Of a stretch of DNA of 64,000 nt, positions 33,261 to 61,418 are shown in pieces. The position numbers and the translations under genes are program-made. The stretch covers positions 96,101 through 160,100 of the forward strand of contig JAUWKS010000002.1 of NCBI GenBank assembly GCA_030614005.1. Direction: 5' to 3'. This DNA comes from Candidatus Heimdallarchaeota archaeon (GTDB taxonomy: Archaea; Asgardarchaeota; Heimdallarchaeia; JABLTI01). A model generated the notes under the pieces. That model made no database searches, was not told the origin of the DNA, and saw nothing but the letters and a program-made list of their open reading frames with translations. Position 1 is the stretch's first letter. Every line of letters starts with the position of its first letter.

Positions 33261-33688
33261 CTTAATTAGGATTATTTTAAGTAATGTTATTAGAAAAAAG
33301 TAAATAACTTATAGCTCTGCTATCGCAGATTCGCGGTCACTACAAGCCCACTTACAGTGGTCTTGCTTAACGTTCTAGCGCGAGATTCTATTAAATACTA
33401 TATCTCAAAAGAAAAAATGATGAATAAAAATGAGTAGTGGTATGTTCAATACAACAAGAATAAAAACTTTGGAAAGTCAATTAAAAGAAGTTATAGAAAA
33501 GCTCGAATTACTTGAGAAAAGAATTACAGCACTAGAATCCAAGTGAAATTTTTCTACAAAGTTTATTTGTTTTTTAAATAGAAATGCAATCCGATGAAAC
33601 TAATATACAAGAGGGGTTTATTTAGTCAGGAGAAGGGCTAAGAAAGGGAAAAAAGGCATTCTTAGAGCGGAGAGAGTGGGTAAAAGAA

Positions 33689-33803
33689 TCGGATTTCGGA
33701 ATTTTTTACTAGTGAACGAAAAAAGCGAAAAATAGAGTATAAGGATGTCAGTTTTCGGATTTTTTTACGGGTATTTTTTGGGTATTTTGGAATTTTTTAC
33801 GCG
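33689..33803. repeat. Iteron-like direct repeats upstream of the Cas1-like operon
   Basis: Three copies of TTT(C/T)GGA(A/T)TTTTTTAC lie at 33694-33709, 33753-33768 and 33785-33800. Two gggtattttt(t)g sub-repeats sit between them. The region lies 50-160 nt upstream of the operon's first gene. Confidence 0.4.
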
Positions 33804-33853
33804 TTTAGAGGTTTATAATCAATATTTCTTAGTGAGTATTTGGAGTAATCTTT

Positions 33854-37338: not shown

Positions 37339-38096
37339 TGAGAGTTATGGTTGTACTTGACTATGAAATAAATTTGAGTAAAACAGAATACTTGTATTAT
37401 CTTGAGTGCCCACAAAAATTCCGTATACATCGAATACTAAATCCAATTCCATATAAGACAACTTTCATGAATACAAAAAGAAGCACTTCTAGTTATGTTC
37501 TGCGTAATTATGATGAAGAAAATTTGAATGGAATATTCAAACATTCATTCTTTGAAACGTTTCATAAAAAATATTGGAATAGAATCACTGAACCAGAAAC
37601 ACCAAAAGAAATTGCTAGCAATCAAATAAAATTATTCTATTGGTTGTATCAACAAAGAAAATATTTCGAAGATTCTGATTACTGGATACCTGTTCAAACA
37701 GAATTACGATTAATGACAGAAAGACAGAGAGGGATAATCGATTGTGTGGAATTGTGTAAGAATAAAAATGGATTAAGAATAATTGACTATAAATCTGAAC
37801 CACATCAAAGTGATATGCTAGCACTGATATTCTATGCAAACTTGTTTAACACCTTTAGAGCTGAAGACAAGGAATATGATGAATACTTGTATGATGTTGT
37901 AGAGATTGGTTGTTATTATTATATATCAGGAATTGAGAGAATCTTTGAATTAAAAGTAGATAATCTATTATCTTTTCAAGAAATTTTCCAACGGATACTC
38001 ACTGAGATTTCCCAAGAGAAATTTCCATTAATCGAAACTTCTTGTTGGAATTGTAAATTAATAGATGTTTGTAAAATTGAGAAAAGAAGAAGGTAA
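37338..38096 (+). CDS. Cas4-like PD-(D/E)XK nuclease with 4-Cys Fe-S cluster signature
   Basis: 252 aa with an N-terminal Cys (YYLECPQKF). RecB-type motifs GIIDCVEL...RIIDYKSE follow (hhhD..E ... hhDhK). A C-terminal CWNCKLIDVC supplies the remaining three Cys, matching the Cas4/AddB C-x(n)-CxxCx5C arrangement. Confidence 0.5.
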   Translation: MRVMVVLDYEINLSKTEYLYYLECPQKFRIHRILNPIPYKTTFMNTKRSTSSYVLRNYDEENLNGIFKHSFFETFHKKYWNRITEPETPKEIASNQIKLFYWLYQQRKYFEDSDYWIPVQTELRLMTERQRGIIDCVELCKNKNGLRIIDYKSEPHQSDMLALIFYANLFNTFRAEDKEYDEYLYDVVEIGCYYYISGIERIFELKVDNLLSFQEIFQRILTEISQEKFPLIETSCWNCKLIDVCKIEKRRR

Positions 38097-43671: not shown

Positions 43672-43704
43672 TGATATTTACGAACATTCAAATTTACACC
43701 CAAG

Positions 43705-44184
43705 CTACAATTGAAATGGTATTAGATAATAGCTTAGTTCAATGGTTCCACCCAATTTTGGATAGTTTATGCTTTGCAATATAATTTTGTTCGTTTCGAC
43801 AGTGATTGGAGTTATTAACTTCATTGAGTTTTTACCCACCATTTTTGTTATCAAAACTATATAGTAGCTTTCATTTACCAGTTGCTCTCCATAAACTACA
43901 AATGCAGTTAGGTTATCGTAGATGTATGTTCCACGTGGGTTTAAACTGGCAGGGTACTCTTGATAGCCAAATTGTGCATTTGATCGTATTTTGAAATCAT
44001 ACCAAATTGATCCACTAAAACTATCGCTTATATTTAGATCCACTATTATCATTGATAATTTCTGCATCTTATCCTGCTGGTTCTGATAATATGAATTCAC
44101 ACTGACTGGTATGACTATCGAACTAACAACCACTATTCCTACTATTGAAAAAAACAATATCTTTGTTTTCTTTTCTCGATCCAT
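43705..44184 (-). CDS. Small secreted/membrane-anchored hypothetical protein
   Basis: 159 aa with an N-terminal signal/TM (ILFFSIVGIVVVSSIVIPVSVNS). Confidence 0.4.
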   Translation of the reverse strand: MDREKKTKILFFSIVGIVVVSSIVIPVSVNSYYQNQQDKMQKLSMIIVDLNISDSFSGSIWYDFKIRSNAQFGYQEYPASLNPRGTYIYDNLTAFVVYGEQLVNESYYIVLITKMVGKNSMKLITPITVETNKIILQSINYPKLGGTIELSYYLIPFQL

Positions 44185-44832
44185 ATGAAGTTCTCTCCTA
44201 GGCTATACTTTGTTCATCTGTTATATTAATCTTTTTTTTATAAAGTTGAATTTTTTTCTAATTATCTTTTTATCCGGTTATGTTTCTTACTTTATCCATT
44301 TTCGAGCTGAACGAGCTCTACGATATAGCATTGCTCATGCTGAAGAATAGATGCATCTCAGCTTCCCTAGTAGGTTGGAGTTTTCCTCTTTTCCTTACCG
44401 ACGTTGAGAATATTTTCCACCTAAATAAGAATTCAAGCGGATTGCAGAAGGAGGAAATACAGTAAAAGTGGGAAACCAACACCAAAAGCAAGTAGGGATG
44501 CAAATGAAACAAAATATTTCACCCATTTCTTTGTTACTGTTCTTACATATCCGGCCGATCTTCTCGAGATAGAATATTTCCTAAATTGCCAATTTGTTAA
44601 AGGTGTTACCGGTGGATCATATTTCTTTCCTTGTGGTTTTTCTGTAATGCTTAGTAAATGATTCCAAGTTTTCACTTGTAAAATACATCGATACTCTTCA
44701 AATGGGCTATAACCAAGTTCTTGGTCCTTCGTTTTGTTGTAGTATTTTTCCCCTTTCTTTTCTATTTCTGTGAATTCATGTCCGGGAGCTTCTATTGTTG
44801 ACCGTTCCTTTTTTTATGGACAAATAGGACAT

Positions 44833-46473
44833 TTATCCATCACCAGTCACCACAACAAGTCCAGAGGATTTGTTGCAGCTCATCTCTGAGCCCCCACTAG
44901 GAATAGTTGAGTGGAGGGTTCCCGAGTCCATGTAGGGCACGGGGCTAGTGTCTTTAAGACTTTTAATTTTAACATAATCTATGAAGCTTGCACGATAAAT
45001 GTTCACAGAAGCATTATAGTCTCTGTCTGCAGTGAAACCGCATTCGGGGCAGTGGAAGAAGCGACCACATTTGTTCTCTAACAGATTGTTTGGTCCTTTC
45101 ACTTTCAAGCCTTTTGCGCTGCATCTTGAGCAGTGACTGGAAGTATTCCAAGGACAAACTTTCACAAGTGTTAGCCCTTTTTGTCGGCACTTGTAGTCTA
45201 GGAGGAAGACTATTCTTCCTCTTAGCCAGTAGCTTAATTTTCTTGACCAGGATCTCTTTCCACGAGGAGGTTTGTAATCTCGCAGGTCTTCGATAGCGAT
45301 TTTTGTGCACTGCCATTTTTGGGCAATTTCTATGAGCTTGTTTGTTGTATAATGAGCCAATTCTTCTCCTAAGCGATTTCTTTTTTGGTAGAGCTTGCTT
45401 CTCTCTTCTTCTCTTCGAGCGACTTTTATTTGCTTGCTTGGTCTTTTCTTTTTCTGCTTGGATAGTTGTCGTTGTATGCCGGCAATATGCCCATATAGTC
45501 TTTCTATGTGCCTGTATTGTCCACCGATCATATTGATGAAAATTGGCTTGGAAATTTGTTTTCCATCCTCACAAACCACACATGTAGCCACTTTTTTCAA
45601 ACCAGGATCTACTGCAAGCACTCGCTCTTTTCCTTCTTTTGGTATCGTTTCTCCTGGGTATTCCCATGGAAACTGTAAGAAGAAGTATTCGAGCCCTGCT
45701 TTCAAGTTCTTGGTTCGCAAAGTAGGTTTTAATGGTTGAGGATATATTGCTTGTGCGATTTTTTCTTCTATTTTTTCGGGCACGAACAGTGTTTGTTCTA
45801 TCCAAACCCAATCGCTTCTCTTTTTTGGTTCCAAACTTGTTGGTAGCTTTATCTCTAGATTGATGGTTTGTTTTTCTACAGTATATTTTATTGCTTGGTC
45901 ATCATCTGGTGCGTAAGGGAAAGTGTATCGTTTTATTTTTGGTTTCACAAAGTCTGTGTAAATGAAATTAGAAAATGCCTCTCCGAGTCTTTGGTGCAAA
46001 TTCTTTATCATTTCTATTGTTTGCTCGATCATGACTTTCTTGTATCGGTAGTAAGTTTTTTCACCATTCTTTGCGGTATTTCTGCAGTGCTGTCTTACCA
46101 CTGAAACCAATTTTTGTTCTGTTGTTTGTATCCCTAACCACTCGACTATTTGGATGCAATCATAGTAACAGCTCATGCGCTTATGTTGTCCTCTAATTAT
46201 TCGTCCTACCCATTCTGTTACTCCTCTTAGTACCCTGGAGGGAAGATATACTCCTTCTGTTTTCGCTTGTGCTTCGTTGATTGCTTTGTATGCATTGAGT
46301 TTGCTTTCACCTATCCTTGTTATCCATTCTTCTGACCATATTTTATCGAGGAGGTCTTGAGCAGTTTTTGTCGTTAACTCTTTGAACCAGTTTAATCTTT
46401 CATCTTGTGTCATTTTGAATTGGTAGCTATTGATTGGATTATTTTTGTTTCTCTTTTTCTTGTTGGAGGACAT
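44833..46473 (-). CDS. tnpB: TnpB-like RuvC/Zn-finger nuclease (IS200/IS605 family OrfB, IS1341-type; OMEGA effector)
   Basis: 546 aa with RuvC-I (LAVDPGLKKVAT), RuvC-II (IAIEDL) and the C-terminal Zn finger plus RuvC-III (CSRCSAKG...FHCPECGFTADRDYNASVNIYRA). No tnpA is adjacent, and no CRISPR array was seen. Confidence 0.75.
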   Translation of the reverse strand: MSSNKKKRNKNNPINSYQFKMTQDERLNWFKELTTKTAQDLLDKIWSEEWITRIGESKLNAYKAINEAQAKTEGVYLPSRVLRGVTEWVGRIIRGQHKRMSCYYDCIQIVEWLGIQTTEQKLVSVVRQHCRNTAKNGEKTYYRYKKVMIEQTIEMIKNLHQRLGEAFSNFIYTDFVKPKIKRYTFPYAPDDDQAIKYTVEKQTINLEIKLPTSLEPKKRSDWVWIEQTLFVPEKIEEKIAQAIYPQPLKPTLRTKNLKAGLEYFFLQFPWEYPGETIPKEGKERVLAVDPGLKKVATCVVCEDGKQISKPIFINMIGGQYRHIERLYGHIAGIQRQLSKQKKKRPSKQIKVARREEERSKLYQKRNRLGEELAHYTTNKLIEIAQKWQCTKIAIEDLRDYKPPRGKRSWSRKLSYWLRGRIVFLLDYKCRQKGLTLVKVCPWNTSSHCSRCSAKGLKVKGPNNLLENKCGRFFHCPECGFTADRDYNASVNIYRASFIDYVKIKSLKDTSPVPYMDSGTLHSTIPSGGSEMSCNKSSGLVVVTGDG

Positions 46474-46644
46474 TTTTTCTTCGCGTTTACTGTTGTTTAG
46501 CTAGATATAATTAAATTCTCTAAGGAGATTACCGAAAGTATTAGAGATTTGTTTAAAAGAATAGTTGAACGAATAGCTAAACGTACAGCTTTTCTAAGAG
46601 GTATTTAATAAAGGAAGTGGGAATAACCTTCTAGGAGAACAGCT

Positions 46645-48273
46645 ATGCAAGACTTTCTCAATTGGCGAACGGATCCATTACTAGTGGATATTGAACCTGC
46701 CAGACCTAACCAATGGTTCACAGCAAATGAGTTAATAGAGGGAGATAGAAGAGATTCATTCATAACACCGGAAAATCAATTGCTTCTTTATCCAATCATG
46801 ATCCGAAAAAACGATTTCATAACCGGGGAACGAATCTTGCAATCGTTTCCATATATTCTATTAGACACTAGAATAATTTCCAAATGTCGTAAACAATCTC
46901 TTGCATTAGCAGAAAAAACCCATTATTATTTTCAAGGCTCTAATTATAATCATTCTATTCGTGATTGGCAGAAAAAGTTCATCAGTTATTTAGAAGAACA
47001 ACAACGCCTGCCTTTTCCTCTATTTCGACTTTATGATGATTGGTTAGATTATATAAAAGAGAAAAAATTTGCTCGATTCCAATCTGCTCGAGGAGAGAAT
47101 TTTCAATTACCACTTTATCTTTCCGAGGACTTGGCTTATCTTTCCGGTGTGGTTATGGGTGATGGTCATCTGGCGGAATATTTTGTTAATATCATTGATT
47201 CTTCAAAAGAGCACATTCTAAATTTAAAAGAAAAGCTTGAAGAGCAATTCAATTCCAAAACGGAATTTTTCAAACAACCAAACGCTAAAGCTTGGAATGT
47301 CAATATTCTAGGTAAATGGATCGTTCGCTTCTTTAACTTTATTTTATCACAACCAATTAAAGAGAGAAAATATCCTGCTCTTAGAGAACCATTTATTTTT
47401 CGAGAGAATGAGTATTTTCGCAGTAGGTTTTGGTCAGGATTGATGGATGCAGATGGTACCTATAAAAGAGTTATTGGATTTAGTTCTGCATCCAAACAAC
47501 TTCGATCTGACTTTTCTAATTACTTAGATGAAAACAATATAAAACATCGATTTTATGAGTATAGTGTTTTTGGTGGAACTACTTTTAGTATAACTATTGC
47601 AGGTCATTCAAGAAAGCCATTTGCTCAACAAATAGGTTCAAATCATCCAGATAAACAACAAGAACTGCAGTTACTATTACAGAAAAAAGTCTATCGATTT
47701 TCACCTCGAATTACTACTCTCAGAAAAAAAAACTCATGGAACGAGCAAGTTCAAGACTTTTCTAAAGATGCAATCCTTGATGGTTTTTTTAATCTTTCAT
47801 TAATTACCACTCTACAAATTTTAGATTTAGGTAGTGATATAAAATCACTGCGAAAAAAGCACAAGGAAAAACAAAAAGAATTAGCTTCATATTTAGAGAT
47901 TACCCCTAGTTTACTTTCAAAATATGAATTAAATAAAACAGCACTTCCAATTTATATTCTTAAAAAGATACTTTCAAAATACAATGTTTCATTTAATCAC
48001 TTTTTTTCTCAATTAAGTAATTTAATTTTCCGTTCTACAAGTTCTAGTTGTCAGTTTCCATTAAAACCAGAAGAAAGGTTATTGACTTTAATTAGAGGAT
48101 TACAAATTATGCCAGAAAATTATTTTCGAGTTATAGGATTGAGAGAAGTGTCAATTGAACATTATAAGAAAGAAATTAGTGATTATTTTAAAATTAATGA
48201 ACCTATAACAGATGTTTTTCATAACGCTTGTTTAGTTGAATTGATTCGATCATTTTGCTTAATCCGAAATTAA
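46645..48273 (+). CDS. LAGLIDADG-motif protein with C-terminal HTH, paralog 3 (more divergent)
   Basis: 542 aa with LAYLSGVVMGDGHL and RFWSGLMDADGTY motifs and a C-terminal HTH-like region. The N-terminus MQDFLNWRTDPLLVD parallels MTVLNWQNDPIYFD of paralogs 1/2. Confidence 0.55.
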   Translation: MQDFLNWRTDPLLVDIEPARPNQWFTANELIEGDRRDSFITPENQLLLYPIMIRKNDFITGERILQSFPYILLDTRIISKCRKQSLALAEKTHYYFQGSNYNHSIRDWQKKFISYLEEQQRLPFPLFRLYDDWLDYIKEKKFARFQSARGENFQLPLYLSEDLAYLSGVVMGDGHLAEYFVNIIDSSKEHILNLKEKLEEQFNSKTEFFKQPNAKAWNVNILGKWIVRFFNFILSQPIKERKYPALREPFIFRENEYFRSRFWSGLMDADGTYKRVIGFSSASKQLRSDFSNYLDENNIKHRFYEYSVFGGTTFSITIAGHSRKPFAQQIGSNHPDKQQELQLLLQKKVYRFSPRITTLRKKNSWNEQVQDFSKDAILDGFFNLSLITTLQILDLGSDIKSLRKKHKEKQKELASYLEITPSLLSKYELNKTALPIYILKKILSKYNVSFNHFFSQLSNLIFRSTSSSCQFPLKPEERLLTLIRGLQIMPENYFRVIGLREVSIEHYKKEISDYFKINEPITDVFHNACLVELIRSFCLIRN

Positions 48274-48593
48274 AGTAATGTTTTGATTCTAGACAAAAAA
48301 AAGTTAATAATTCGCACTTTGGGGTGCGTTCGCATCGACGCTACTCATCGCTTACAGCGATTCCTCACGCGTCAGAGCGATTTTCTATTAGTTTTTTGTA
48401 TAAAAAAGTCAAAAGTTTTGAAATACAGCTAATCAGAAAGGAATGTCATTATTTTTGACGTTTATAAATGAAATAGATTTTTGGGCTTTTTTAGTCATTT
48501 TTAAAGAAAATTGGCTAGTGTTTAATAGTTAAGGGTTAAATTTCAGGAAATTAGCAAAAAAGACTGAAAAAAGTGTTAAAATGAGGTTTTTCT

Positions 48594-51500
48594 ATGAGTA
48601 AAGCTGTTTCTTCCACAAAAAAACTTCCTCTTTGTCTTTCTATGGGTGTGACAGAGGTGCTAGAAGGAAGGGAGAGCATAACAGGTAAAGACCTTCTAGA
48701 TTATTTTTCTTTACAGGATAAAACATCTTTTCTTACTAACACGAAAAATTTTGTTCTTGTTTGTGGAAATAAACAGAGACCAAATGACTATGAGCCTAAC
48801 AAATTCCTCGGCTCTTTTGGTGTTCGAAGAGCACTAGCAATGAAGAATTACACTCGATTGCCTGTAATTATTGTTACCAATAACCGTTTTGAAACTTCTA
48901 TGCTTATTGAGCAGTTTAATAAACTAACTTCTTGTTTCAAACTATACACATCAAAGAAAAGTCAAAGAGAAAATATTAATGAAGAAATTAAAGCGGACTA
49001 CCCGAATGAAGCAGACTTTATACTGACAACATATAGCTCTTTCTGGGATCAAACAACAAACAAGGATGATCCATCTTCAGAACAAATTATCTTAATCAAT
49101 CCATTAAGACTAAAATATATCATCGAGGATGTAGGCAAATTAGATGTCATTTTTGGCTGTATACATAGGCATAAGCGAATAAGACCGAATTATTCCTTCA
49201 TTCTTGATGAAGCACACTACCCAATTCTATCAAAGAAAGATTATCAATTCTTATTTAAAGCAGGCAATAGTCTTTTCTTTAGATGCAAAGAGAGAATGCT
49301 TTTAGAATATAATAATCCATTCAGAGAAGCTATTTCTCACCTAACTAGTGATCAATTCCAGCTATTTATTTTCACAGATCTTTTTAGGGGAAGAAAACTG
49401 ATAAAAGAACTGGTTAAAGAGTTCAAATCAACTTTTACTTATAAAATGTACCTCTACAGTAATGGTATTTTTCCAACAATTGATGAAAAATTGCCTTCAA
49501 AAGAACTTCTTAAAGAAAAGAATAGGCTTGATAAGAAAGTTTTAAGTGGAATTGTAAAACAAATACATTTATTCACAAAAGGAAGCAACACCAAAACGAT
49601 AACAGGAAAAGTAACTTACAGCGATTTTGATTTTAACGTTGGCCTCAGTAAACAAGAGATATCTCGAACGTATTCCTGGGATAAACCAAAAGAAGCAGCA
49701 AGATTCCTTCCGGTAGTCACTAAGGAAGAAGGAAGATTCAAACTTAGCGCTCTAGGAGAAGAAATATTTGGTGTGTCATCATGGTTTAGTGGTGTTGAGG
49801 ACAATTTTAGCGAACTTTTAGCTCACTTTTCTAGGATCCTTTACAAAAACAAGAAGGAAAACCACAAATTTTCCGTGAAAGAGATAATCATTTTTTATCT
49901 TCAAATGATAGATTGCAATTATGAAACAGTGAAAAGATTTGAGGAGGCAATTCCTGAAAAGTTAGACACAGAAAAAAAGAATGACCAAATGATCGCAATC
50001 CTTGAAAAGAAATTCAAGCCACTAGTTAAAAATTTCAAAAGAGTTTCAGCAAAAAAAATCCTTGGTGCTTTTGAAAAATTAATGAATACTGAAGCATACA
50101 TTTTCTATCAACAATTCAAGAATTATAAGAAAGAAGAGAAACGTTCCTGGGAAGAGAGAAGGAGAAAAGCGGTCCTAAGAAAAGCAAATTATCAGCCCTT
50201 AGCTGTGAAATTCACAGGTGATTATTATCACATGTTTTGGCAAGACGCCAAGAAGTTATTGGAAGAATTAGTTGAAGAAGGGCGACTTGTCAGGATTATT
50301 TCTTACAATGGTAGAGGAAAACCGATACTAAAGTACCTTACTCAAGAATTACTGGATGCGAACCCTCATTTCCAAAAGAATTGCGGGAACTGTCAATGGT
50401 ACAATCAACGCTTCAAAACATGCACCTTTTTACGTTTAAAACAAGCGAAAAACCCGAGTACAATGACAAAAGAAGAATTTGAATATGCTAATGATACACT
50501 AAGATTTGAAGCAACTGCTTGTGAGAAGTACATAGAAAAAGATGATTTTCAGTCGATGGAAGGCAATGTTAAGTTCACTGCTACCGTTGAGAAGTTAACT
50601 AAAGATATGAAGAATATATCAATGAGCTTTTTATCAGGAGATATTGCAGAGTACAAGTATCATTGTCTTTCTTGCCAGGAACAAATAGAAGAATTTGGTA
50701 CAGGTGATAGAATCTTCTTTCCAAGGAGAAGAATTATTTGTCCTAACTGTTCGACAGTTTATCTTCAACTAAAAGATCGGAAAAAAGTAAAAGTGAAAAT
50801 GGAGGAAAGAGATCATCAAAGAAGCTTATACTTCAAAGAAACTGGGACCATTACTGACGTTTTGAGGAAGAAAGATTCTGCTCGTGTTTTTGTCATACAT
50901 GACATAGATAGTGCTAGATTAAGAATCAACGAAGAAAATGATGAGCCACCTTATTTTCTAGTGATAGGTAAAAATGAAATAGCTCTGGATTTGGTGCAGT
51001 TTGTCTATTTTTCAGGTATACGTCATCAAGAATTAGAAGAAACAATGTGGTTACTAGCGGACCTTGATTCTGAAAGATACAAATACAAAATTAAGCGAAC
51101 AGAACAAAAGTCAAAGAAGAAAAAAGCAAAAAGTCGATATAAAAGACCCTTTTCAGCTGAAGACTATTCCAATATCATAAAAATAATCAAAAAAAGCTCC
51201 GATAAAGAAATATTCAACCATCAATTTTTGGAAGCAAGGCTTATCTCAAATATTGCTGGAATGTTATCAATAAAATATGAAATAGAAATGGAAAGCTTCT
51301 CTGACTGGCATTACAATCACCAATTGTTGGAAATGGTTGATTTGCATATGAAAGTAATTGGCGGAGAAGTAAAGTCAAGCTATTATGGAACTCAATTAGA
51401 AGCACTTAGCAACAAGCACTTTTTTGACTTTTTGAAGGGAGAAGCTGCGAGAGTAGGTCTCTGGTCAAAAGGGCGAGTGAATAGCAGGCTAGTGATAGAT

Positions 51501-52772
51501 ATGCTTAAATCCTTCAGCCAAAAGGTTAGTAGTGCTTTTTCACCTTTAGATGCTTTACTGAATCAAATGTTGCGCTCATTCAGAGTAGAATTAGATCCGT
51601 TGTTTCACAGGATGGGCATGGATCCTGCAATGTTAGGTCCAGGTTTGTTTCATAGACGAAAAACAAAATCTGATATTGACCAGCTAGGTTTTTACTTCGA
51701 CTTAATAGAAGCTGTGCGAGTTCTAGTGCTTGTAACTATTGTTAAAGCTATTCGAGATGGCACCCTCGGTTTTGATGATTGTAAATACGTACTAGGTGAG
51801 GATGGACAAGAGATCTATCAAGTGAAAGGTTCTTCCCTGGATAAATTCACCAATCTGGTTTCAGAAGCTCTTGAACAAACCGTTTCACATCAAGGGCAAA
51901 GAATGACTTTTAAACAAGCTTTTGAATTCAATCTTTTGTGCTTAAGAGTTGCTTTTGAAAAATGTCTTTCAGAGATAGAAGAACATAAACAAATTACTTT
52001 GAAAAAAATCAAGAAGTGTTTTGATGATTCACTTTTTATTTCATTTACTTTCTGCCCTGAAGGACTAGAAGAGAAGTTAATAGATTTAAATCGATTTGCA
52101 AGTAAAGAAGGAGTAATTTTCTTTGGAAAAGAACAAGAAGTTTTGGAACGAAAAGAAACAAGAGAAAAATATAGAAAAGAAGTAAAGAGTCATTGGTACA
52201 ACGAAAATGTGATTAAAAAGCTAAATGCTTTTCGGTTGACCAAACATCAAATTAAAGAGCAAGATAGAAGTTTGCTTGTTATTTTGTTGTTATTGTACAA
52301 TACTTTTGAAAGAGATTTTACAATTGATGAATACTCAACTAATCATTTTAAGGAATTACTTGGAATAACTCAAAACCAAGTACAGAGATTACTTGATCAA
52401 ATGGTTTCCAGTGGATTGCTTCTTCGAGAGAAAGTAAATAGAAAGAATTTCTACGAGTTAAATCTTAAAAATCTAAATGTTAAGGACTTTCGTTTTCTTC
52501 TTGGAGTAAATCTCTCTTTAGAGGAACATCTTCAAAGAGAGTTTATCATCAATATTCCTCCTCATTTAGAGCGAGTTGAAAAGATTATTTCTCAAATCAA
52601 ATTGCTTCCTACTAATCAACAAAAAGTCATAAGAAGTAATTTTTGGTTTGATTGGGAACCAACAGAAATTATTCGAAGAGTAATTGTTTGGGCAGAAGAG
52701 AAAGCTGTAACTAGTAAAGCATTTTTCAAAATGATAGGTGATATTCATGGTAAAAAGCAGTTACATTTTTAA
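48594..52772 (+). CDS. Large multidomain protein of unknown function (Zn-ribbons, wH; possible degenerate DEAH-like motif), co-operonic with helicase
   Basis: 1392 aa with Cys clusters (CGNCQWY...C; CLSCQE...CPNCS) and a C-terminal wH (LLGITQNQVQRLLDQMVSSGLLLREKVNRKNFYEL). An ILDEAHYP segment is also present. Its 3' end overlaps the helicase gene by 35 nt. Confidence 0.5.
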   Translation: MSKAVSSTKKLPLCLSMGVTEVLEGRESITGKDLLDYFSLQDKTSFLTNTKNFVLVCGNKQRPNDYEPNKFLGSFGVRRALAMKNYTRLPVIIVTNNRFETSMLIEQFNKLTSCFKLYTSKKSQRENINEEIKADYPNEADFILTTYSSFWDQTTNKDDPSSEQIILINPLRLKYIIEDVGKLDVIFGCIHRHKRIRPNYSFILDEAHYPILSKKDYQFLFKAGNSLFFRCKERMLLEYNNPFREAISHLTSDQFQLFIFTDLFRGRKLIKELVKEFKSTFTYKMYLYSNGIFPTIDEKLPSKELLKEKNRLDKKVLSGIVKQIHLFTKGSNTKTITGKVTYSDFDFNVGLSKQEISRTYSWDKPKEAARFLPVVTKEEGRFKLSALGEEIFGVSSWFSGVEDNFSELLAHFSRILYKNKKENHKFSVKEIIIFYLQMIDCNYETVKRFEEAIPEKLDTEKKNDQMIAILEKKFKPLVKNFKRVSAKKILGAFEKLMNTEAYIFYQQFKNYKKEEKRSWEERRRKAVLRKANYQPLAVKFTGDYYHMFWQDAKKLLEELVEEGRLVRIISYNGRGKPILKYLTQELLDANPHFQKNCGNCQWYNQRFKTCTFLRLKQAKNPSTMTKEEFEYANDTLRFEATACEKYIEKDDFQSMEGNVKFTATVEKLTKDMKNISMSFLSGDIAEYKYHCLSCQEQIEEFGTGDRIFFPRRRIICPNCSTVYLQLKDRKKVKVKMEERDHQRSLYFKETGTITDVLRKKDSARVFVIHDIDSARLRINEENDEPPYFLVIGKNEIALDLVQFVYFSGIRHQELEETMWLLADLDSERYKYKIKRTEQKSKKKKAKSRYKRPFSAEDYSNIIKIIKKSSDKEIFNHQFLEARLISNIAGMLSIKYEIEMESFSDWHYNHQLLEMVDLHMKVIGGEVKSSYYGTQLEALSNKHFFDFLKGEAARVGLWSKGRVNSRLVIDMLKSFSQKVSSAFSPLDALLNQMLRSFRVELDPLFHRMGMDPAMLGPGLFHRRKTKSDIDQLGFYFDLIEAVRVLVLVTIVKAIRDGTLGFDDCKYVLGEDGQEIYQVKGSSLDKFTNLVSEALEQTVSHQGQRMTFKQAFEFNLLCLRVAFEKCLSEIEEHKQITLKKIKKCFDDSLFISFTFCPEGLEEKLIDLNRFASKEGVIFFGKEQEVLERKETREKYRKEVKSHWYNENVIKKLNAFRLTKHQIKEQDRSLLVILLLLYNTFERDFTIDEYSTNHFKELLGITQNQVQRLLDQMVSSGLLLREKVNRKNFYELNLKNLNVKDFRFLLGVNLSLEEHLQREFIINIPPHLERVEKIISQIKLLPTNQQKVIRSNFWFDWEPTEIIRRVIVWAEEKAVTSKAFFKMIGDIHGKKQLHF

Positions 52773-55700
52773 CAAGAAAGAAATCTTCCCGATTAATCCT
52801 GGTAAACCCCGAAAATGGATCACTATTCATAACCTTCCTGCTACTGAACCAAGGAAAATAACTGGTCTCACATGGCAAGAAGTACTACCTGGTTATGCTC
52901 AAGCTTTAGCAGAAGTGATCGAAGAAATAACTGGTAGTAAGAACCCCTATGAGCACCAAGAACAAGCAATAAAGCATTTATTGAATAATTCTGCTAATAA
53001 GAAATGCCTGGACCTCATAATTAAAGGTGGAACTTATTCAGGAAAATCACTATCTTTCATCGTTCCTGGTATCATCAAGCAAATAAATGAGGAAACGGAT
53101 TTTACAGTCATTTTTTACCCTTCGAAACAATTACTCCTAGACCAATTTGAAAGAGTGAAAGAGTATTTGGTGAAATTCGAGGAAAAAACAGGCATCAGAT
53201 TAATTTGTGAAAAGTACAGTGGAGATACTGGAAATACTAATTACTCTAAAGGGGTAGCTCGTGTAAATGATCAAGAGCTGAATAATTTAGAACAGAACCC
53301 GCCGAATGTCTTGCTTGCCACTTTTGACAAATTTTGGCATCATTATGAGAGTGGGAACAGCAGTCCGTTAATAAAGAAAATAGCATCTGCAAATTATCTT
53401 GTTTTTGATGAGATACATGCATTTGACGGTTACGCTGCAGGTAACATTAAGGGCTTTATTGCTATTCACAAGAAAGCTAATCCTCAGGGGCAATTTATAC
53501 TTTCCTCTGCTACTATAGCTAATGTTGAAGGATTCAGAGACGATTTCTTGCCTAATGCTAAAATAATTACTTGCCCACCAGTGAGAGGAGAACAAGTGTA
53601 TGTTGGCACAACAATTGAACACACAGTTTCACTGCTTGCAGATTTCTGGAAAGAAATGGAAAAAATGCCAGGAAAAACCGGTCTTGTTTTCCTTGATTCG
53701 AAAGAAAACATCGAATTATTAACAGACCTACTCTGTAGGAAACTCAAGCAGGATGACCCTTTCTTTGATCCTGACACTGTGCAGATGATCCACGCAGATT
53801 TGGAATATTATCATCGTAAAAGAGTGCAAGATGAGCTTCGAAAAGGAAATAGAAATATTATTAGAATTCTCATCTCTTCCTCAGTCTTGGAGCTTGGTGT
53901 AAATATCCCTAACATTCAAACAGTATTTAATATTGGCATTCCGATAACACAGAAAGATGGTATTATTCAAAGGATGGCTCGCAATCGCTCTGTTCCCGGT
54001 GAAAGAAGAACGAATGTTTTTCTGTTCGACCTTTCTAAGAAACGTGACAGTTTTTACTGGAACAATAAGGAAATCCTCAAGGACATTCTTGAAACGAATG
54101 CTTGTAACCCTATTCTTTATCCCAAACTTAACCCGAAGATATTGGCGGGGCAAATTATCTTGCACCTTAGATACGGTATTAATGACTTTGGAGAGATAAT
54201 GCAATTCTTCCTTGATCAAGGACCACAAGTTTATCGCTTAGCAAGACAACAATACACTAAACTTGTTAGTTTAAATGTCCTGAAAAAAAGCAGCGATGGT
54301 AAAGTTCTCTTCACAAGCCAAGGAGAAAAAAAGCTAAAAGTGCAAGCAAAAAAGAAAAATCATCTTGTTCCGTTCTCCATACGAGCTATTAAAAATAATT
54401 GGTCTATTAAGAAAAAATTTGGAGAAAGTTCTTACTGGCATGAAAATAGAAAATCTAGTCTTGGTAAGATCTCTACCAAGGATGTTTTAAAGAAAGGATT
54501 GCCTGACAATATTATTACTCGTAACAAAAAACAGTATCTTGTTACGGATAAAGATCAGCAATTAAGAACTATTTACGTTAAAGAATTACTTTCTAAAGAA
54601 AAAAGTGCTGGAAATTTTTCCGGAATAACTAATCGTTTACTTGACCCTCAGATAACTCCTGGTGTTTTCTCTAAGAAAGTTAAAGGAACAAAAATAGTTG
54701 ACATTAGTTTTGGTCAAGTTTCAATTAAGCAACAACCTTTAGCTATTGTTAACTCTAATCCCGAAAAAATTAGTTCTAATAATACTCATGTAAAGGATAA
54801 CAAGAACTTTTTTTGGCAAGAATTAACCCCAAAACGCTCGGAAGAATTGGCTAATACTGAAAAGTCAGATGGATTAGCCATTACATTAACTTCTGATATT
54901 CCAAAACCAAAAGAACTTACAACTAAGAAATTACTAGAATATTTTGGGCGCGTCCTACAAGTTGAGATTGAAACCGTTCTTTCAATTCCAGGTAGTGAAT
55001 TCGCACTTGCGATTAATACTAATCAATTAGCAATTTATGATAAAGGAGACCCAAATGGAAACTCAGAGTATTTGTTTAGTCATTTACAAAAAGTCGCTGC
55101 TCGAACGCTCAAAAGATTGACAGATTGTTCTTGTGAAAATGGTTGCAAAAATTGTTATGGTGAAATTCTTGGCTTATTTCCTAAAGGAGTAAAAGAATCA
55201 CTAAAAATACTTTTCAAGGATTTAACGCTGATTTCTGAAGTGGAGTTTGATGATGAATTGTTGCATGAAATCAATCCTGAGCAAATGAATTTCAAAGAAA
55301 ACAGAATTATTGCTTTTTCAGATATTCATCTTACAAACAAGCTTTGTTTCCAGGAAGAATTTTTCGAAGCGCTCAAAGAGCAGAGTAAACAAGCTGATAT
55401 TATCATCATCAATGGTGATTTATTAGATACTATTTCAGAAGATAGTTATCAGGCTTTTAGTGAATTCAAAAGCATGGCTATACGTGAAGGTTTTTGGTCG
55501 AAACTAGTTCTGATACGCAGTTCTTCTATTCATGACGGCAATCTTGAGCAATTCACAGGTTTCCTCCATCAAGATTATGTTGAAGTTGAGATCGGTTCTG
55601 AACAAGTATTATTCGTCCACGGAAATAGGATCGGCATAAATCCTAGTTTAGTAGATAAAACAAGTATAGGAAAAGCTGTCTTTGAAGCAAAAAAGGCTTT

Positions 55701-55914
55701 AATAAAGCCGGGCAAGATTTGGCTTCCTGTTATTCTCCCTGAAACTCATCTTGTTATTGGCCATGTTCATCTCCGATTTTATAATGAACGCTTTCGAGTT
55801 TATGGTTCTGGTCACTGGACAAAAAAAGGTGACCCTTACAATCAACGATGCATGATAATTCTTGACCCTAATTCTTTAGATGTGCCAAAAATCGTTTCAT
55901 TTGATAACTATTAG
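52738..55914 (+). CDS. SF2 DEAH-type helicase fused to MZB/DUF1998-like Zn-binding domain and C-terminal calcineurin-like metallophosphoesterase
   Basis: 1058 aa with Walker A GGTYSGKSLS, motif II LVFDEIH, motif III SSAT and motif VI QRMARNRS. The 4-Cys cluster TDCSCENGCKNCYGE is DUF1998/MZB-like. Phosphoesterase motifs are AFSDIHL, INGDLLD, FVHGNR and VIGHVHLR. Confidence 0.7.
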   Translation: MIFMVKSSYIFNKKEIFPINPGKPRKWITIHNLPATEPRKITGLTWQEVLPGYAQALAEVIEEITGSKNPYEHQEQAIKHLLNNSANKKCLDLIIKGGTYSGKSLSFIVPGIIKQINEETDFTVIFYPSKQLLLDQFERVKEYLVKFEEKTGIRLICEKYSGDTGNTNYSKGVARVNDQELNNLEQNPPNVLLATFDKFWHHYESGNSSPLIKKIASANYLVFDEIHAFDGYAAGNIKGFIAIHKKANPQGQFILSSATIANVEGFRDDFLPNAKIITCPPVRGEQVYVGTTIEHTVSLLADFWKEMEKMPGKTGLVFLDSKENIELLTDLLCRKLKQDDPFFDPDTVQMIHADLEYYHRKRVQDELRKGNRNIIRILISSSVLELGVNIPNIQTVFNIGIPITQKDGIIQRMARNRSVPGERRTNVFLFDLSKKRDSFYWNNKEILKDILETNACNPILYPKLNPKILAGQIILHLRYGINDFGEIMQFFLDQGPQVYRLARQQYTKLVSLNVLKKSSDGKVLFTSQGEKKLKVQAKKKNHLVPFSIRAIKNNWSIKKKFGESSYWHENRKSSLGKISTKDVLKKGLPDNIITRNKKQYLVTDKDQQLRTIYVKELLSKEKSAGNFSGITNRLLDPQITPGVFSKKVKGTKIVDISFGQVSIKQQPLAIVNSNPEKISSNNTHVKDNKNFFWQELTPKRSEELANTEKSDGLAITLTSDIPKPKELTTKKLLEYFGRVLQVEIETVLSIPGSEFALAINTNQLAIYDKGDPNGNSEYLFSHLQKVAARTLKRLTDCSCENGCKNCYGEILGLFPKGVKESLKILFKDLTLISEVEFDDELLHEINPEQMNFKENRIIAFSDIHLTNKLCFQEEFFEALKEQSKQADIIIINGDLLDTISEDSYQAFSEFKSMAIREGFWSKLVLIRSSSIHDGNLEQFTGFLHQDYVEVEIGSEQVLFVHGNRIGINPSLVDKTSIGKAVFEAKKALIKPGKIWLPVILPETHLVIGHVHLRFYNERFRVYGSGHWTKKGDPYNQRCMIILDPNSLDVPKIVSFDNY

Positions 55915-56221
55915 TAACTTTTTTTCACATTTATCTTATGTCCTATTTGTCCATATTTTGTGGCAACAGTTGACACCCTTAATTATATCACTTGTTTTCA
56001 GAACAGAATAATTTCTTCGTTCCATACCTGTTAATTTCAAGCCGGTTAGAAAAGCAATTAACCCTAGAGTAGGTCCGATGAACACAATAATAGCTATTAC
56101 ATTCATAGTTTCCACGACAAAACTCAACTCTGTAGTGATTAGGATGTTATTTCTACTATTTGAATTATGCCACAAATTACTTGCAGTCTATATTTGCTAT
56201 TTTTGACTTTATTCAGTTACT

Positions 56222-57088
56222 ATGATAACATTATTCAAATGGATAAAGGAAATTATTACTATGCCAACGATAGCAATTAGTGATATTGATATTTATTATG
56301 AGATTCTTGGAAAAGGTCCCTCATTGCTTTTTATTCATGGTGGATGGGTTAGTCGAAAGATGTGGACCCCCCAAGTGAAACATTTTTCAGCTAATTATCA
56401 AGTTATTACTTGCGATATTAGGGGTCATGGACGTACTGGTGGTTCTTTAAAGAAGAGATATTCAATGGAACTCTTTGCTTCTGATATTGTAGAGATGTTA
56501 GAGAAGCTTCAAATAAATGAACCAATTATCGTTGGACTTTCAATGGGTGGAATGGTTGCTCAGGTTTTAGCTACAAAATATTCCGATTATCCCATCAAAG
56601 CACTAATTTTATCTGATACTGCTATTTCCTCGGAACTTACCTTCAATGACAAATTAATAAAATATCTTTTCGCTCCAAAATGGTTGTTCTTATTAATAGT
56701 GCGATTATTAGGAGTGAAAAGATATGCCAACTTTGCTTTCTGGTTTGCAAAAAAATCTCGCGGTGAGAAGTGGGTTGGCGAAGATGAAAGTATTATTGAC
56801 TATGAAAAAGAAGAGATGAATAGATTTGACGTTAAAGAATTTAACAAGATATTTAGTGCTATCTATGATTATAAAATTCAAGATCTTTCAAAAGTCAAGG
56901 TTCCCACTTTACTAATTAATGGTGAATTTGAATCGAAATCTGTTTTTCAACATGCTAATAAAATGAACGAATTAATAGAACATTCCACTATGAAAATAAT
57001 TGCTAATGCAGGTCATACCTCAAATATGGAAAATCCTGATGAATTTAACAGAGTTTTAGCTGAATTTCTTCTTAAGAATAAATTATGA
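56222..57088 (+). CDS. Alpha/beta hydrolase fold protein
   Basis: 288 aa with nucleophile elbow GLSMGGMVA and a typical N-terminal HGGW segment. Confidence 0.6.
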   Translation: MITLFKWIKEIITMPTIAISDIDIYYEILGKGPSLLFIHGGWVSRKMWTPQVKHFSANYQVITCDIRGHGRTGGSLKKRYSMELFASDIVEMLEKLQINEPIIVGLSMGGMVAQVLATKYSDYPIKALILSDTAISSELTFNDKLIKYLFAPKWLFLLIVRLLGVKRYANFAFWFAKKSRGEKWVGEDESIIDYEKEEMNRFDVKEFNKIFSAIYDYKIQDLSKVKVPTLLINGEFESKSVFQHANKMNELIEHSTMKIIANAGHTSNMENPDEFNRVLAEFLLKNKL

Positions 57089-59364: not shown

Positions 59365-60504
59365 CTATGCTTCAAGCCTTCTCGTCTTCGAGGTGGTTGT
59401 CCTCTCAGAGAGAGCAGTATCATGGTCAGTGAAGGAAAGCATCTCAGCATCCATAGCAGTATCAAGTTCTTCTCTTCTACTTGCCGATAATGAGATAATT
59501 TCATTATGTATTACTAATTTTCCATTATAAAAGTCATTTATTGCTAAATTTACCATTAACAAAAGATGATTTTTCAAGTAATTTTTTCCATACTGGAAGG
59601 ATTCTACTATCCTTTCAAGATTATCTGAAAGAAGGAGATAATTATAAAGTTTTAGATGATTAACTTGATTCACTTCAATATCTTTTTTTAATTGCTGAAA
59701 GTCAATCTTCCCTTTTGACTTGTCATAGCGAAAGGTTGTCTGGTATGGCTTCTTTCGAGTGATGTAAGAGGCAAGTCTATCGTAATACTGCACTATTGGT
59801 AGGAGCATATTGGTACTTCCTTCTCCATTGTGGTGGTTTAGACAAGCTTCTCTAACTTCTTCATCTACGATGTCTATCTGTTGGAAAATTTTACTGTTGT
59901 GTTTCTCTGTGTGAACAAAATCGTGTAGCATGAGAGCAATAAGCAATCTTTGTAATTCCTCAGGGTAATCTGCTCGTAAACCAGCTCGAATTTTGAATTT
60001 CTTATACTGCCATGTTTGATTACAAGAAGTACATCGTTTGCGTTTAGAATTTTTATCATAGATTGTTGTTGAATTCTTGCATTGAGGACATTTCTCAGAT
60101 AAAGGAACGGTTACAGTAGGATCTGTTTTTGTAAAATGCTTGATTTCACATGATTCCCAAAGGACTCTACCATACCCTTCAGCAGTCTTTGGACCCAAGA
60201 ATGATTTCTGGAGAAATGGTTCTATTTTCCTCTTTAGCTGTTCTTCTGAAAACCCCACACAACTGATTGTAACAAATCCTCGGAACCCATGTAAGACCGT
60301 AGGATACTGATTCTTGCCATAGACCAATTTACCTATAGTTGAAAAGAGAGGTTTAGTTTCCTTCTTTGGATCTCCGACCACTTTTACCAAACACCCGTGC
60401 TTCCAATATGTTGATTGAGAAACGACAATTGGATTCACCAACCGACCCACGAGTGTAGCAATTTTCTTTTGTTTTATTTGTATGTTTTCCATGCGTCTAA
60501 ACAT
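59365..60504 (-). CDS. RAMP-like/Zn-finger/HD-like fusion protein, copy 3
   Basis: 379 aa, collinear and highly similar to 778-1917 (GPKTAEGYGRVLWE; CPQCKN..CTSCNQ; LMLHDFVHTEKH; NHLLLMVNLAINDFYNG). Confidence 0.45.
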   Translation of the reverse strand: MFRRMENIQIKQKKIATLVGRLVNPIVVSQSTYWKHGCLVKVVGDPKKETKPLFSTIGKLVYGKNQYPTVLHGFRGFVTISCVGFSEEQLKRKIEPFLQKSFLGPKTAEGYGRVLWESCEIKHFTKTDPTVTVPLSEKCPQCKNSTTIYDKNSKRKRCTSCNQTWQYKKFKIRAGLRADYPEELQRLLIALMLHDFVHTEKHNSKIFQQIDIVDEEVREACLNHHNGEGSTNMLLPIVQYYDRLASYITRKKPYQTTFRYDKSKGKIDFQQLKKDIEVNQVNHLKLYNYLLLSDNLERIVESFQYGKNYLKNHLLLMVNLAINDFYNGKLVIHNEIISLSASRREELDTAMDAEMLSFTDHDTALSERTTTSKTRRLEA

Positions 60505-61418
60505 TCCTGTAATAGTTGATTTTGATATGTAGTTCTTTCTTCCTCAATGATAGCTAATTTCCCATCACCATTTTCTTGCCCTAATTTTCTCTCGAAAACT
60601 ATCTTCTCATACGAAACATTTTTTATCTCAAGACGACCATACCCACTATTTTCTCCTCGACCAAGATACTTTAAAGAAAAAATTCCATCAATAAGTAGCC
60701 CAAGTAACCATTGTGGGAGAGATTCTGAAAATTCAACATAGAATTGAAACTCTCCACTGAAATATTGTTCACTAAAATCTTGCAAGACTTTTCCATCTCT
60801 TCGTGAAGCATGACGATTCTCAGTAGAAACATGAACAAATGAAAGGCCTTTTTGAGCAGTGATTTTATTAGAAGGTTTATCGGTTTGTACGAGAGCATCA
60901 GTCCATACTCTTATAGGGGACTTCTCACCAAGCATACCAAATAACTGTCTTACAGGGCATGGGTTCTCTCCACATTTACCCATAAGATGCTCGTTGATTA
61001 GTAAGGTTGGTTCATTGTTTCCTTGAAATCTCTCTTTCATAGTAGGAGAGCAATATTCAATTCCTCTGTTATGTAGAATCTCCATGATACTATGTCTAAT
61101 TGCACCACGAACGCCTTTAACCATCCGAGAGCTTCCAAGTTCTTCTTTAAGAGTAAAGACTTGAATTTTAGCGTCGTTTTCCTTTCCTTCTGCTTTAACT
61201 TTTAGCTCGTTAAAATCATCAAGAATCAAATCTTTGTTGGTTAAGAGGAATTCCTCTAATTCTGAAACCTTAACATTTGTTCTACCTTGAAATTGATAGG
61301 GAACGTCTCCCCCTTTCATAAGAAAGGAACTTTTACCGCTACTTCCATTAAGCGTTTTCGTAAACCAAGCATATACCTTAACTGTTAAACGATTGAAAGT
61401 GTGTGTCATAATCATCAT
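60474..61418 (-). CDS. Cas7-like RAMP protein, copy 3
   Basis: 314 aa with MVKGVRGAIRHSIMEIL, GKCGENPCPVRQLFG and GRGENSGYGRLEI, collinear with 1887-2819. Confidence 0.55.
   Translation of the reverse strand: MMIMTHTFNRLTVKVYAWFTKTLNGSSGKSSFLMKGGDVPYQFQGRTNVKVSELEEFLLTNKDLILDDFNELKVKAEGKENDAKIQVFTLKEELGSSRMVKGVRGAIRHSIMEILHNRGIEYCSPTMKERFQGNNEPTLLINEHLMGKCGENPCPVRQLFGMLGEKSPIRVWTDALVQTDKPSNKITAQKGLSFVHVSTENRHASRRDGKVLQDFSEQYFSGEFQFYVEFSESLPQWLLGLLIDGIFSLKYLGRGENSGYGRLEIKNVSYEKIVFERKLGQENGDGKLAIIEEERTTYQNQLLQECLDAWKTYK

Follow-up and report, generated by a model that had tools for sequence, protein, structure and literature searches.

The present data can be brought together in a model in which a Heimdallarchaeotal genome carries a mobile element of the aCas1-TnpB type, built around a Cas1-family integrase and equipped with an accessory helicase-nuclease, a reading that we put at slightly better than even. 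The element lies in a 64,000-nucleotide stretch of DNA, here called the window, from a Candidatus Heimdallarchaeota archaeon (GenBank assembly GCA_030614005.1, contig JAUWKS010000002.1, positions 96,101 to 160,100 of the forward strand), and two of its genes, here termed A and B, are the main subject. Gene A (48594..52772, plus strand, 1392 aa, ATG start) specifies a multidomain Cas1-family protein, and gene B (52738..55914, plus strand, 1055-1058 aa, GTG start) a YprA/MrfA-family DEXH helicase joined to an MZB (DUF1998) module and a metallophosphoesterase. Both open reading frames (ORFs), their strand and their 35-nt overlap are exactly as claimed in an earlier reading of the bare sequence (the original prediction); an alternative in-frame ATG of B at 52747, with a 26-nt overlap, is as plausible as the GTG. 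The original prediction had taken A and B for a two-gene operon. The pairing is real, A standing directly upstream of B in 18/18 related loci (related loci are labelled L001-L032), but it is incomplete: A and B form the right-hand two thirds of a conserved unit of ~11.2 kb (window ~44801-55970) within terminal inverted repeats, in which the order is tnpB (minus strand), a gene for a LAGLIDADG and helix-turn-helix (HTH) protein, here called LH (plus strand, divergent from tnpB), a structured RNA element of ~70 nt, A and B. What the original prediction observed of the sequence features is confirmed, and its interpretation as a defence system is partly supported.

The product of A had been regarded as an unknown partner of the helicase with "no clear enzymatic motif". 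Judged by sequence comparison and by a structural model, it is instead a highly diverged Cas1-family protein in which the predicted catalytic residues are retained. Direct searches of A against Pfam, NCBIfam and PADLOC gave nothing significant, with no Cas1 match at E<=0.1 in Pfam or PADLOC, and the profile of A found nothing significant among PDB sequences. The link to Cas1 comes solely through fold comparison and through transitive profile matches, by way of a 674-aa paralogue in the window (34602-36626) and a distant homologue, P0074. Residues 516-1118 of A are homologous to the paralogue (hhalign 97.6%, E 3.6e-12), which itself has a weak PADLOC Cas1 match (5e-4). An exhaustive HMMER search with the profile of the Cas1 domain of A recovered 31 representative clusters among 1.84 billion proteins; the most distant of these, P0074, passes Pfam Cas_Cas1 at 45.5 bits and aligns with A over 485 columns (hhalign 97.7%, E 1.8e-12). 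Residues E936, N990, H1020 and D1036/E1039 of A lie opposite the P0074 Cas1 motifs YEG, NPxNAxxNY and GLLH...DLxD. Across 29 family representatives, H1020, D1036 and the glycine at position -3 relative to that histidine show no variation and N990 is nearly invariant, while in the 15-sequence A7 alignment of A both E936 and N990 are invariant and E1039 is nearly invariant. An AlphaFold (AF2) model of residues 500-1200, with a mean predicted local distance difference test score (pLDDT) of 64 and values of 75-95 over the catalytic domain, was compared with the PDB by Foldseek, and the 44 best matches were all Cas1 or casposase. The top match was casposase 6opm (E 1.6e-8, probability 1.00, TM ~0.5 relative to the target), and the Cas1-Cas2/3 structures 8flj and 9p11 were also among the structural matches. 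By this comparison the two-domain Cas1 fold, with an N-terminal beta and a C-terminal alpha-helical catalytic domain, occupies residues ~730-1120, and the Cas1-like catalytic domain (aa ~880-1120; 51231..51953, plus strand) would hold E936, H1020 and D1036/E1039 as putative catalytic residues, plus N990. Since paralogue, HMMER family, P0074 alignment and structure all point to a Cas1-family domain, the statement that A lacks an enzymatic motif was wrong. Close homologues of A fall into nine clusters, the single source-named one being annotated Heimdallarchaeota, and a renewed search with the 15-sequence alignment of A returned the same nine clusters and nothing further.

The integrase domain of A is fused to several other modules. 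At the N-terminus (aa ~40-230; 48711..49283, plus strand) a second AF2 model (pLDDT 74-91) indicates a domain resembling RecA1 of superfamily 2 (SF2) helicases, for which the Foldseek matches in the PDB are the XPF helicase-like domain, MDA5/RIG-I, Hel308 and DEAD-box RecA1 (E 2e-4 to 5e-3, probability ~1.0). This domain has a DEAH-like "LDEAH" motif with an invariant D205 and no GK[ST] Walker A and, because the Walker A lysine is missing, is probably without ATPase activity. The zinc ribbons and winged helix attributed to A by the original prediction are borne out, the former by two 4-Cys zinc modules (aa 597-720; 50382..50753, plus strand) with invariant cysteines (C597/C600/C610/C643 and C691/C694/C716/C719) that are common to A, the 674-aa paralogue and P0074. 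The winged-helix matches are weak; the C-terminal domain (aa 1244-1313; 52323..52532, plus strand) has weak matches to PADLOC WH_III-A and PDC-M05A and to the Pfam Mnd1 HTH, and a winged-helix-like stretch at aa ~516-590, with a weak eS25-like match, precedes the zinc modules.

The sequence of B is that of a DEXH helicase of the YprA/MrfA type which carries, in addition, an MZB module and a metallophosphoesterase domain whose predicted active-site residues are intact. The SF2 helicase core (aa 59-437; 52921..54057, plus strand) is matched by Pfam DEAD (62 bits) and Helicase_C (47.5 bits), the MZB/DUF1998 zinc module (aa 756-803; 55012..55155, plus strand) by PF09369 (29 bits against a gathering cut-off of 24.2), and the calcineurin-like metallophosphoesterase domain (aa 853-1050; 55303..55896, plus strand) by Pfam Metallophos (21.7 bits against 21.5). 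All of the helicase, MZB and phosphoesterase motifs claimed for B were found, and 26 aligned homologues show little or no variation in them: the ATPase motifs GGTYSGKS, DEIH, SAT and QRMARNR (QRxARxR) and the four zinc cysteines C794/C796/C800/C803 (CSCENGCKNC) are invariant, as are, wherever the domain is present, the metal-ligand motifs of the phosphoesterase (D859xH861, GD891, H958 in VHGN, and GH1006xH1008). The nearest solved relative is B. subtilis YprA/MrfA (6znp, E 1e-18, the top match of the B profile among PDB sequences), followed by 9tu7, a 2108-aa DEAD/DEAH helicase, and the assignment of B to the YprA/DUF1998 helicases, which are central to DISARM, Druantia and Dpd, thus stands. 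The NCBIfam and PADLOC matches of B are confined to the generic helicase core, with scores far short of the family cut-offs. The phosphoesterase domain is divergent, with weak YfcE/LpxH-type similarity at most, and a nuclease role is for that reason proposed here conditionally; Mre11, SbcD and PdeM were considered as its identity, and the searches gave no such assignment. Homologues of B form ~30 clusters, whose named members are Heimdallarchaeota with the exception of one Bathyarchaeia, and none was found in the viral contigs searched. Some relatives (L003b, L007, L019) encode the phosphoesterase in a gene apart from that for the helicase-MZB part.

Of the remaining two genes of the unit, LH always and tnpB almost always accompanies A and B. 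LH adjoins A-B in 17/17 loci that extend far enough, and TnpB stands beside LH in nearly all loci. The tnpB gene of the window (44833..46473, minus strand, 546 aa, lineage "TnpB1") specifies a predicted RNA-guided RuvC nuclease, with Pfam OrfB_IS605 and Cas12f1-like_TNB matches and an NCBIfam guided_TnpB score of 109.9 bits (cut-off 100); the alignment shows the RuvC D/E/D residues and the zinc finger, CxxC..CxxC. LH (46645..48273, plus strand, 542 aa) comprises an N-terminal domain, a double LAGLIDADG and an XRE-type HTH_3 domain (Pfam LAGLIDADG_3 and HTH_3), with invariant LAGLIDADG motifs GDGHL and MDADG, and in the PDB its HTH finds PezA/HipB/SinR, and its LAGLIDADG part PI-PfuI, as profile matches. 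This architecture resembles WhiA or a meganuclease. LH shares with the WhiA family the plan of LAGLIDADG_3 plus HTH, but it keeps both acidic residues, its HTH is of the XRE-type HTH_3 kind, and there is no Pfam or NCBIfam WhiA match. The slot beside LH may be filled by TnpB of three unrelated lineages, TnpB1 and TnpB2 being ~20% identical and the third type occurring in L032. In the latter (L032 251-2152) the 540-aa TnpB is co-directional with LH and is preceded by a 58-aa AbrB/SpoVT-like gene, and in L028 the slot consists of 1.8 kb without ORFs, possibly a decayed tnpB. In one copy of arrangement III (L007 7004-9934, equal to L021), a 976-aa gene of the MmeI restriction-modification type lies between the phosphoesterase gene and LH. 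No serine or Y1 (HUH) transposase of the TnpA type was found in any of ~25 loci, where the neighbour of tnpB is always LH; the unit has the TnpB of an IS200/IS605 or IS607 insertion sequence but not its TnpA.

The limits of the unit are given by its terminal inverted repeats. The left repeat (44801..44832, 32 nt) directly follows the tnpB stop codon and reads outward on the minus strand as ATGTCCTATTTGTCCATAAAAAAAGGAACGGT; presumably the omega-RNA scaffold has its 3' end in this repeat. The right repeat (55938..55970, plus strand, ATGTCCTATTTGTCCATATTTTGTGGCAACAGT) lies 24 nt past the stop codon of B, and within these 32-33-nt repeats 44815-44832 and 55938-55955 form a perfect inverted core of 18 nt. 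The left repeat block is kept in five TnpB1-type loci, the sequence diverging beyond it. L009 has a perfect 22-nt repeat pair at the same positions, L003a also has a pair, and L003a and L011 share the same right-end arrangement. Elements of the TnpB2 type (L014, L001) carry at both ends another repeat, GTTAAC..GACCAT, so that the repeat of each element corresponds to the 3' end of its own TnpB lineage and varies with it. Since the repeat at the far end, beyond B, co-varies with the TnpB lineage, the four genes are one bounded unit and not an insertion sequence that happens to lie beside an operon. A comparison of left and right ends in three loci (L003a, L009 and the locus of the window) shows 12-17 additional, variable nucleotides on the TnpB side; in the window this segment (CAACAATAGAAG..., 44789..44800, minus strand, boundaries uncertain) lies outside the left repeat and is a candidate guide of the omega-RNA. 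In the five ends available, the conserved end ...GGAACGGT is followed by the variable stretch and then by ATTCACAGA in the window, TTTCACAGA in L003b, TTTTGCAAG in L003a or TTTCTCATA in L009. The variable segment had no second match in the 64-kb window and no exact match in viral contigs. Outside the left end, the window has ~600 bp (44185-44790) without an ORF of >=100 aa, with one 80-aa ORF (44433..44675), before an ORF at 43705-44184; this interval may hold a distal TnpB guide region or the remnant of another element. On the right, unrelated convergent genes end 8-25 bp from B in L006, L009 and L010, and the right repeat of L009 overlaps the last codons of its convergent neighbour.

Between LH and A lies a G+C-rich structured element of ~70 nt (48313..48381, plus strand), probably an RNA, with five helices and 20 base pairs. 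It is present in 13/15 loci, 88.8% of alignment cells are paired, and 13/20 pairs show compensatory changes; none of 500 shuffles reached the observed values, slid controls gave 16-47% pairing, and the G-U pairs favour the plus strand. Two units that are otherwise complete for LH-A-B (L027 683-897 and L006 264-498) are without it, the spacer running straight into a promoter-like block, and the element is therefore dispensable in some lineages. Rfam has no family for this intergenic element nor for anything else in 43500-56500. The structured element is followed by a conserved block, TAATCAGAAAGGAATGTCATTATTTTTGACGTTTATAAATGAA, with a TATA-like TTTATAAA (48430..48473, plus strand), which is kept in nearly all loci and stays upstream of A in arrangement II (L010); on these grounds it is likely the archaeal promoter of A-B. 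A scan for bacterial promoters and terminators performed no better than on shuffled sequence and is irrelevant for an archaeon.

The unit is multi-copy and prone to decay. The taxon-labelled loci are from metagenome-assembled genomes (MAGs) of Heimdallarchaeota, one Bathyarchaeia excepted, and the metagenome loci carry no label. One MAG has at least 7 copies of LH and another has 3 complete units. Several copies have decayed through frameshifts in LH, reduction of TnpB to fragments, or internal deletions. L025 has kept both repeats and lost the interior. L023 shares its chromosomal site, and identical flanks to either side, with the complete L001, but precisely A-B is missing from it and the repeats remain. 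LH copies that stand alone or have decayed, without A-B, occur in L013 (10001-11629, also without TnpB), L016, L022 and L024, the last of which has a tandem TnpB1-LH pair in a different orientation. The pair is thus found within a TnpB-carrying, repeat-bounded, multi-copy unit with deletion derivatives and pseudogenes, and not as the free-standing pair of defence genes that the original prediction had envisaged; the locus accordingly resembles a mobile element more than it does an independent defence system.

Among described elements, the unit is best classed with the aCas1-TnpB elements predicted in Asgard archaea, as a well-preserved representative. The study of Altae-Tran et al. 2023 (PNAS, PMC10691335) describes two Asgard-specific TnpB groups with Asgard Cas1 homologues (Cas1H-Asgard-1/-2), "often flanked with repeats", proposes aCas1 as the transposase of these loci, and reports a hypervariable stretch downstream of the aCas1-associated tnpB, between a conserved T and a CRISPR-repeat-like motif GTTCACTCA, which is suggested to be a possible spacer-like guide. 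The present unit agrees with this description in its Heimdall host, a diverged Cas1 near tnpB, flanking repeats, and a variable stretch past the conserved tnpB-side end. However, agreement between the published GTTCACTCA and the motif that lies downstream in the present loci (ATTCACAGA, TTTCACAGA) is only partial, and, set beside the aCas1-TnpB loci as described, the Cas1 protein is fused to a helicase-like N-terminus and has obligatory YprA-MZB-phosphoesterase and LH partners. The YprA-MZB-phosphoesterase partner, the co-variation of repeats with TnpB lineage and the covarying RNA are not mentioned in the literature read or found, and the exact gene set may have been described previously. The same paper describes TnpB transposons with helicase, WhiA/meganuclease-like and unknown cargo (serine-recombinase branch Ser-3), which is how B, LH and A would appear in routine annotation; however, no serine or Y1 transposase occurs in the loci examined here. 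With casposons the unit shares a Cas1-family integrase (casposase 6opm being its top structural match), terminal inverted repeats, accessory helicase and nuclease genes, and archaeal hosts. Unlike casposons, it contains TnpB, LH and a YprA helicase, its Cas1 has diverged much further and carries additional fused domains, no family-B DNA polymerase lies inside the repeats (which enclose only TnpB, LH, A and B), and no target-site duplication of 14-15 bp was found. The window does have a family-B DNA polymerase (13875-16643, minus strand, 922 aa), 28 kb away and outside the repeats, to the C-terminal part of which a PADLOC "homing endonuclease" model matches at 107 bits. Makarova and colleagues are said to have noted, in the CRISPR J in 2020, an "unprecedented diversity of Cas1 homologs in Asgard archaea".

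In the mobile-element model, A would act as the integrase (transposase) and, in the manner of casposases and Cas1-Cas2, join the ends of the element to target DNA. B, presumably coupled to A in translation, would unwind and trim DNA at the ends or at the target, a partnership with parallels in Cas2/3 or Cas4 with Cas1, in MrfA with the nuclease MrfB, and in the helicase and nuclease genes of casposons. LH could serve as a site-specific DNA binder, a nickase or a regulator of the divergent promoters, and TnpB with its omega-RNA may promote retention or homing of the element. Several observations weigh against this model. The repeat type follows the TnpB lineage and not the phylogeny of A, which is unexpected if A recognises the ends. 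The TnpB-LH pair takes three orientations relative to A-B across the loci, so that it could be a mobile module in its own right, in association with A-B. When the two ends of TnpB-LH by itself were compared, they showed no inverted repeat. No target-site duplication was seen at the three complete repeat pairs, nor any consistent flanking direct repeat, and a 6-bp GTTGAC repeat at the element ends in the window was set aside as chance, being absent in L009 and L003a. A search for an empty site by way of the downstream alpha/beta-hydrolase gene turned up no such site, but a single 1.8-kb contig in which the junction is the same. Copies that share a genome are old, with LH identities of 48-72% (100% is reached only at orthologous sites of related genomes), and there is consequently no sign of recent transposition. 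In addition, the element lacks the DNA polymerase of casposons, and the AF2 model of A is of only moderate quality overall, as its mean pLDDT shows.

An alternate scenario, in which the TnpB element merely ferries a defence system, is considered unlikely, albeit the strongest of the competing explanations. Here B would be a helicase-nuclease effector like DruE, DrmA-DrmB or the ARMADA YprA, and A, jointly with it, a sensor or partner like DruH that recognises invader DNA through its Cas1-like nuclease, zinc and winged-helix domains. The scenario draws on the fact that several defence systems are defined by a YprA-family helicase to which a nuclease is attached: Bell et al. 2025 (10.1101/2025.09.15.676423) list, besides MrfAB repair, DISARM, Dpd, Druantia, ARMADA, BRIGADE and TALON, with DnaQ-like exonuclease, PLD, Vsr/PD-(D/E)xK and RNase H as partners. 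B resembles these in its DEXH core with DUF1998/MZB, in a nuclease-type domain placed C-terminally or in the next gene, and in its large partner (compare DruH-DruE). It differs in that the attached domain is a calcineurin-like metallophosphoesterase and the partner a Cas1 homologue, not DruH, DrmB/C/D, BrxHII or PglX; the phosphoesterase fusion, which the original prediction had placed outside described systems, is indeed absent among the nuclease partners of that survey, which mentions neither Asgard archaea, TnpB nor phosphoesterase. The best PADLOC matches of B, namely SngC, DruE, BrxH and Cas3, speak in the same direction, but they cover the generic helicase core only, and no partner-protein model of Druantia, DISARM or Shango (DruH, DrmB/C/D, SngA/B) matches A or its neighbours. 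Druantia III combines DruH with a DruE of ~2000 aa that is PLD-like at its C-terminus, whereas in the present pair DruE matches only residues 61-261 of B (36-39 bits), A contains no DruH, and there is no PLD. DISARM consists of DrmA, DrmB, DrmC (PLD) or DrmD and a methyltransferase; here a 20-bit DrmA match falls on the helicase N-terminus of B only, and neither a methyltransferase nor a PLD gene was found in the unit or among its neighbours in the window. For Shango (SngABC), the SngC model covers the helicase core of B at 58 bits, with no SngA or SngB in A or the neighbours. The single methyltransferase beside a related locus (the MmeI-type gene of L007) is not a conserved part of the unit. 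The NERD-NACHT, RAMP and Cas1-like modules beside the unit accord with defence, as does a patchy, multi-paralogue and decay-prone distribution, which is also typical of defence genes, and the deep divergence among copies could reflect diversifying specificities. However, at least 7 copies in one genome and inverted repeats matched to TnpB are more transposon-like, and neither a homologue on viral contigs nor a guide-like match to viruses was found. The claim of a defence island with a role against mobile genetic elements (MGEs) therefore holds insofar as the neighbourhood is rich in defence- and MGE-type genes; the anti-MGE role itself is possible and not the best-supported reading, as the locus itself looks like an MGE.

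A further scenario, distinctly more doubtful than defence cargo, would make the unit a "proto-CRISPR" in which A, with B making the fragments, inserts short DNA at the end of the TnpB omega-RNA scaffold and so reprograms the guide; if true, this would amount to single-spacer adaptive targeting by TnpB. The variable segment of 12-17 nt after the TnpB-side repeat, absent at the right-hand repeat, is one observation in its favour, and it recalls the hypervariable stretch, possibly a spacer-like guide, of Altae-Tran et al. 2023 (PMC10691335). Against this, the segment is known from five TnpB1-type ends only and its limits are uncertain, 12-17 nt is short for a TnpB guide, no match to it was found in the window or in viral contigs, and it may be plain flanking genomic DNA, as in ordinary IS605-type elements. 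The swapping of TnpB lineages while LH-A-B persists would also be consistent with such a role, as would the parallel between A-B and the Cas1-Cas2/3 of type I-F CRISPR-Cas, both of which pair a Cas1 integrase with an SF2 helicase-nuclease (8flj and 9p11 being structural matches of A). However, the helicase here is of the YprA type with a phosphoesterase, not Cas3 with an HD domain, and the 64-kb window contains no CRISPR array-like tandem repeat and the neighbours no Cas2 match. Very improbable, finally, is a housekeeping repair pair like MrfA-MrfB or the bacterial Lhr-Core/MPE (PdeM) cluster, in which the helicase would unwind and the phosphoesterase trim damaged DNA. Clusters of a helicase with a metallophosphoesterase nuclease are known in bacteria, the repair helicase MrfA/YprA is the nearest solved relative of B, and B has a weak match to NCBIfam TIGR04121, the ligase-associated DEXH helicase (E 5e-12). 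However, that match reaches 44 bits against a cut-off of 850, B scores far under every equivalog cut-off, and the ligase-associated cluster was rejected as an identity, with no PdeM match and no ligase gene. The distribution of B (~30 clusters) is narrow, and a Cas1-like protein, TnpB and terminal repeats are its constant company. The housekeeping synteny that the original prediction had named as counter-evidence was looked for, and none was seen: flanking genes differ at every site of the unit, there is no conserved chromosomal context, and the unit is multi-copy and often pseudogenised. Because of this variable context, the multiple copies and their decay, a housekeeping role is rejected.

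The two ancestral components of CRISPR-Cas12 systems are the Cas1 integrase and the TnpB nuclease. Loci in which the two travel together are, to our knowledge, rare and have never been tested experimentally. The present locus offers a complete, apparently intact example with defined ends, and as such it bears on the origin both of CRISPR adaptation and of type V effectors. It makes it possible to ask whether a Cas1 homologue can be the transposase of an element that has no polymerase, what a YprA helicase does beside an integrase, and whether TnpB guides can be replaced. The YprA family known from DISARM, Druantia and Dpd gains a new partner, Cas1, and a new fused domain, the metallophosphoesterase, and the combination of "helicase plus DUF1998" should not be taken for defence by default.

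The neighbourhood of the unit contains further modules of interest. At 31689-38096 lies a second Cas1-like module, comprising an LH paralogue (31689-33260, ~32% identical to the LH of the unit, LAGLIDADG_3 and HTH_3), a 261-aa winged-helix protein, the 674-aa Cas1-like protein (34602-36626), a 241-aa protein and a PD-(D/E)XK nuclease (37338-38096); the LH family thus accompanies Cas1-like proteins in two types of module within the window. A third LH-family paralogue (28283-29857, 524 aa) is 59% identical to that at 31689-33260, and no gene for a Cas1-like protein, TnpB or a helicase adjoins it. Bordering the element on its left, 38428-43671 specifies a 1747-aa protein with a NERD nuclease and a NACHT NTPase, a candidate for STAND/NLR-type defence. 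Three copies of a gene pair, all on the minus strand (778-2873, 25734-27508 and 59365-61418), combine a RAMP protein of the Csm3-Cmr1-like kind (259-328 aa) with a protein of 334-379 aa that has a zinc ribbon and an LHDFVHTEKH motif; the 379-aa copies at 778-1917 and 59365-60504 are 78% identical. These pairs resemble the array-less "ARAMP" CRISPR derivatives, which reportedly occur in Asgard archaea. Farther to the left, at 17368-25311, five tandem plus-strand genes specify proteins of 436-535 aa, three of which are right-handed beta-helix/NosD-like paralogues, possibly surface proteins.

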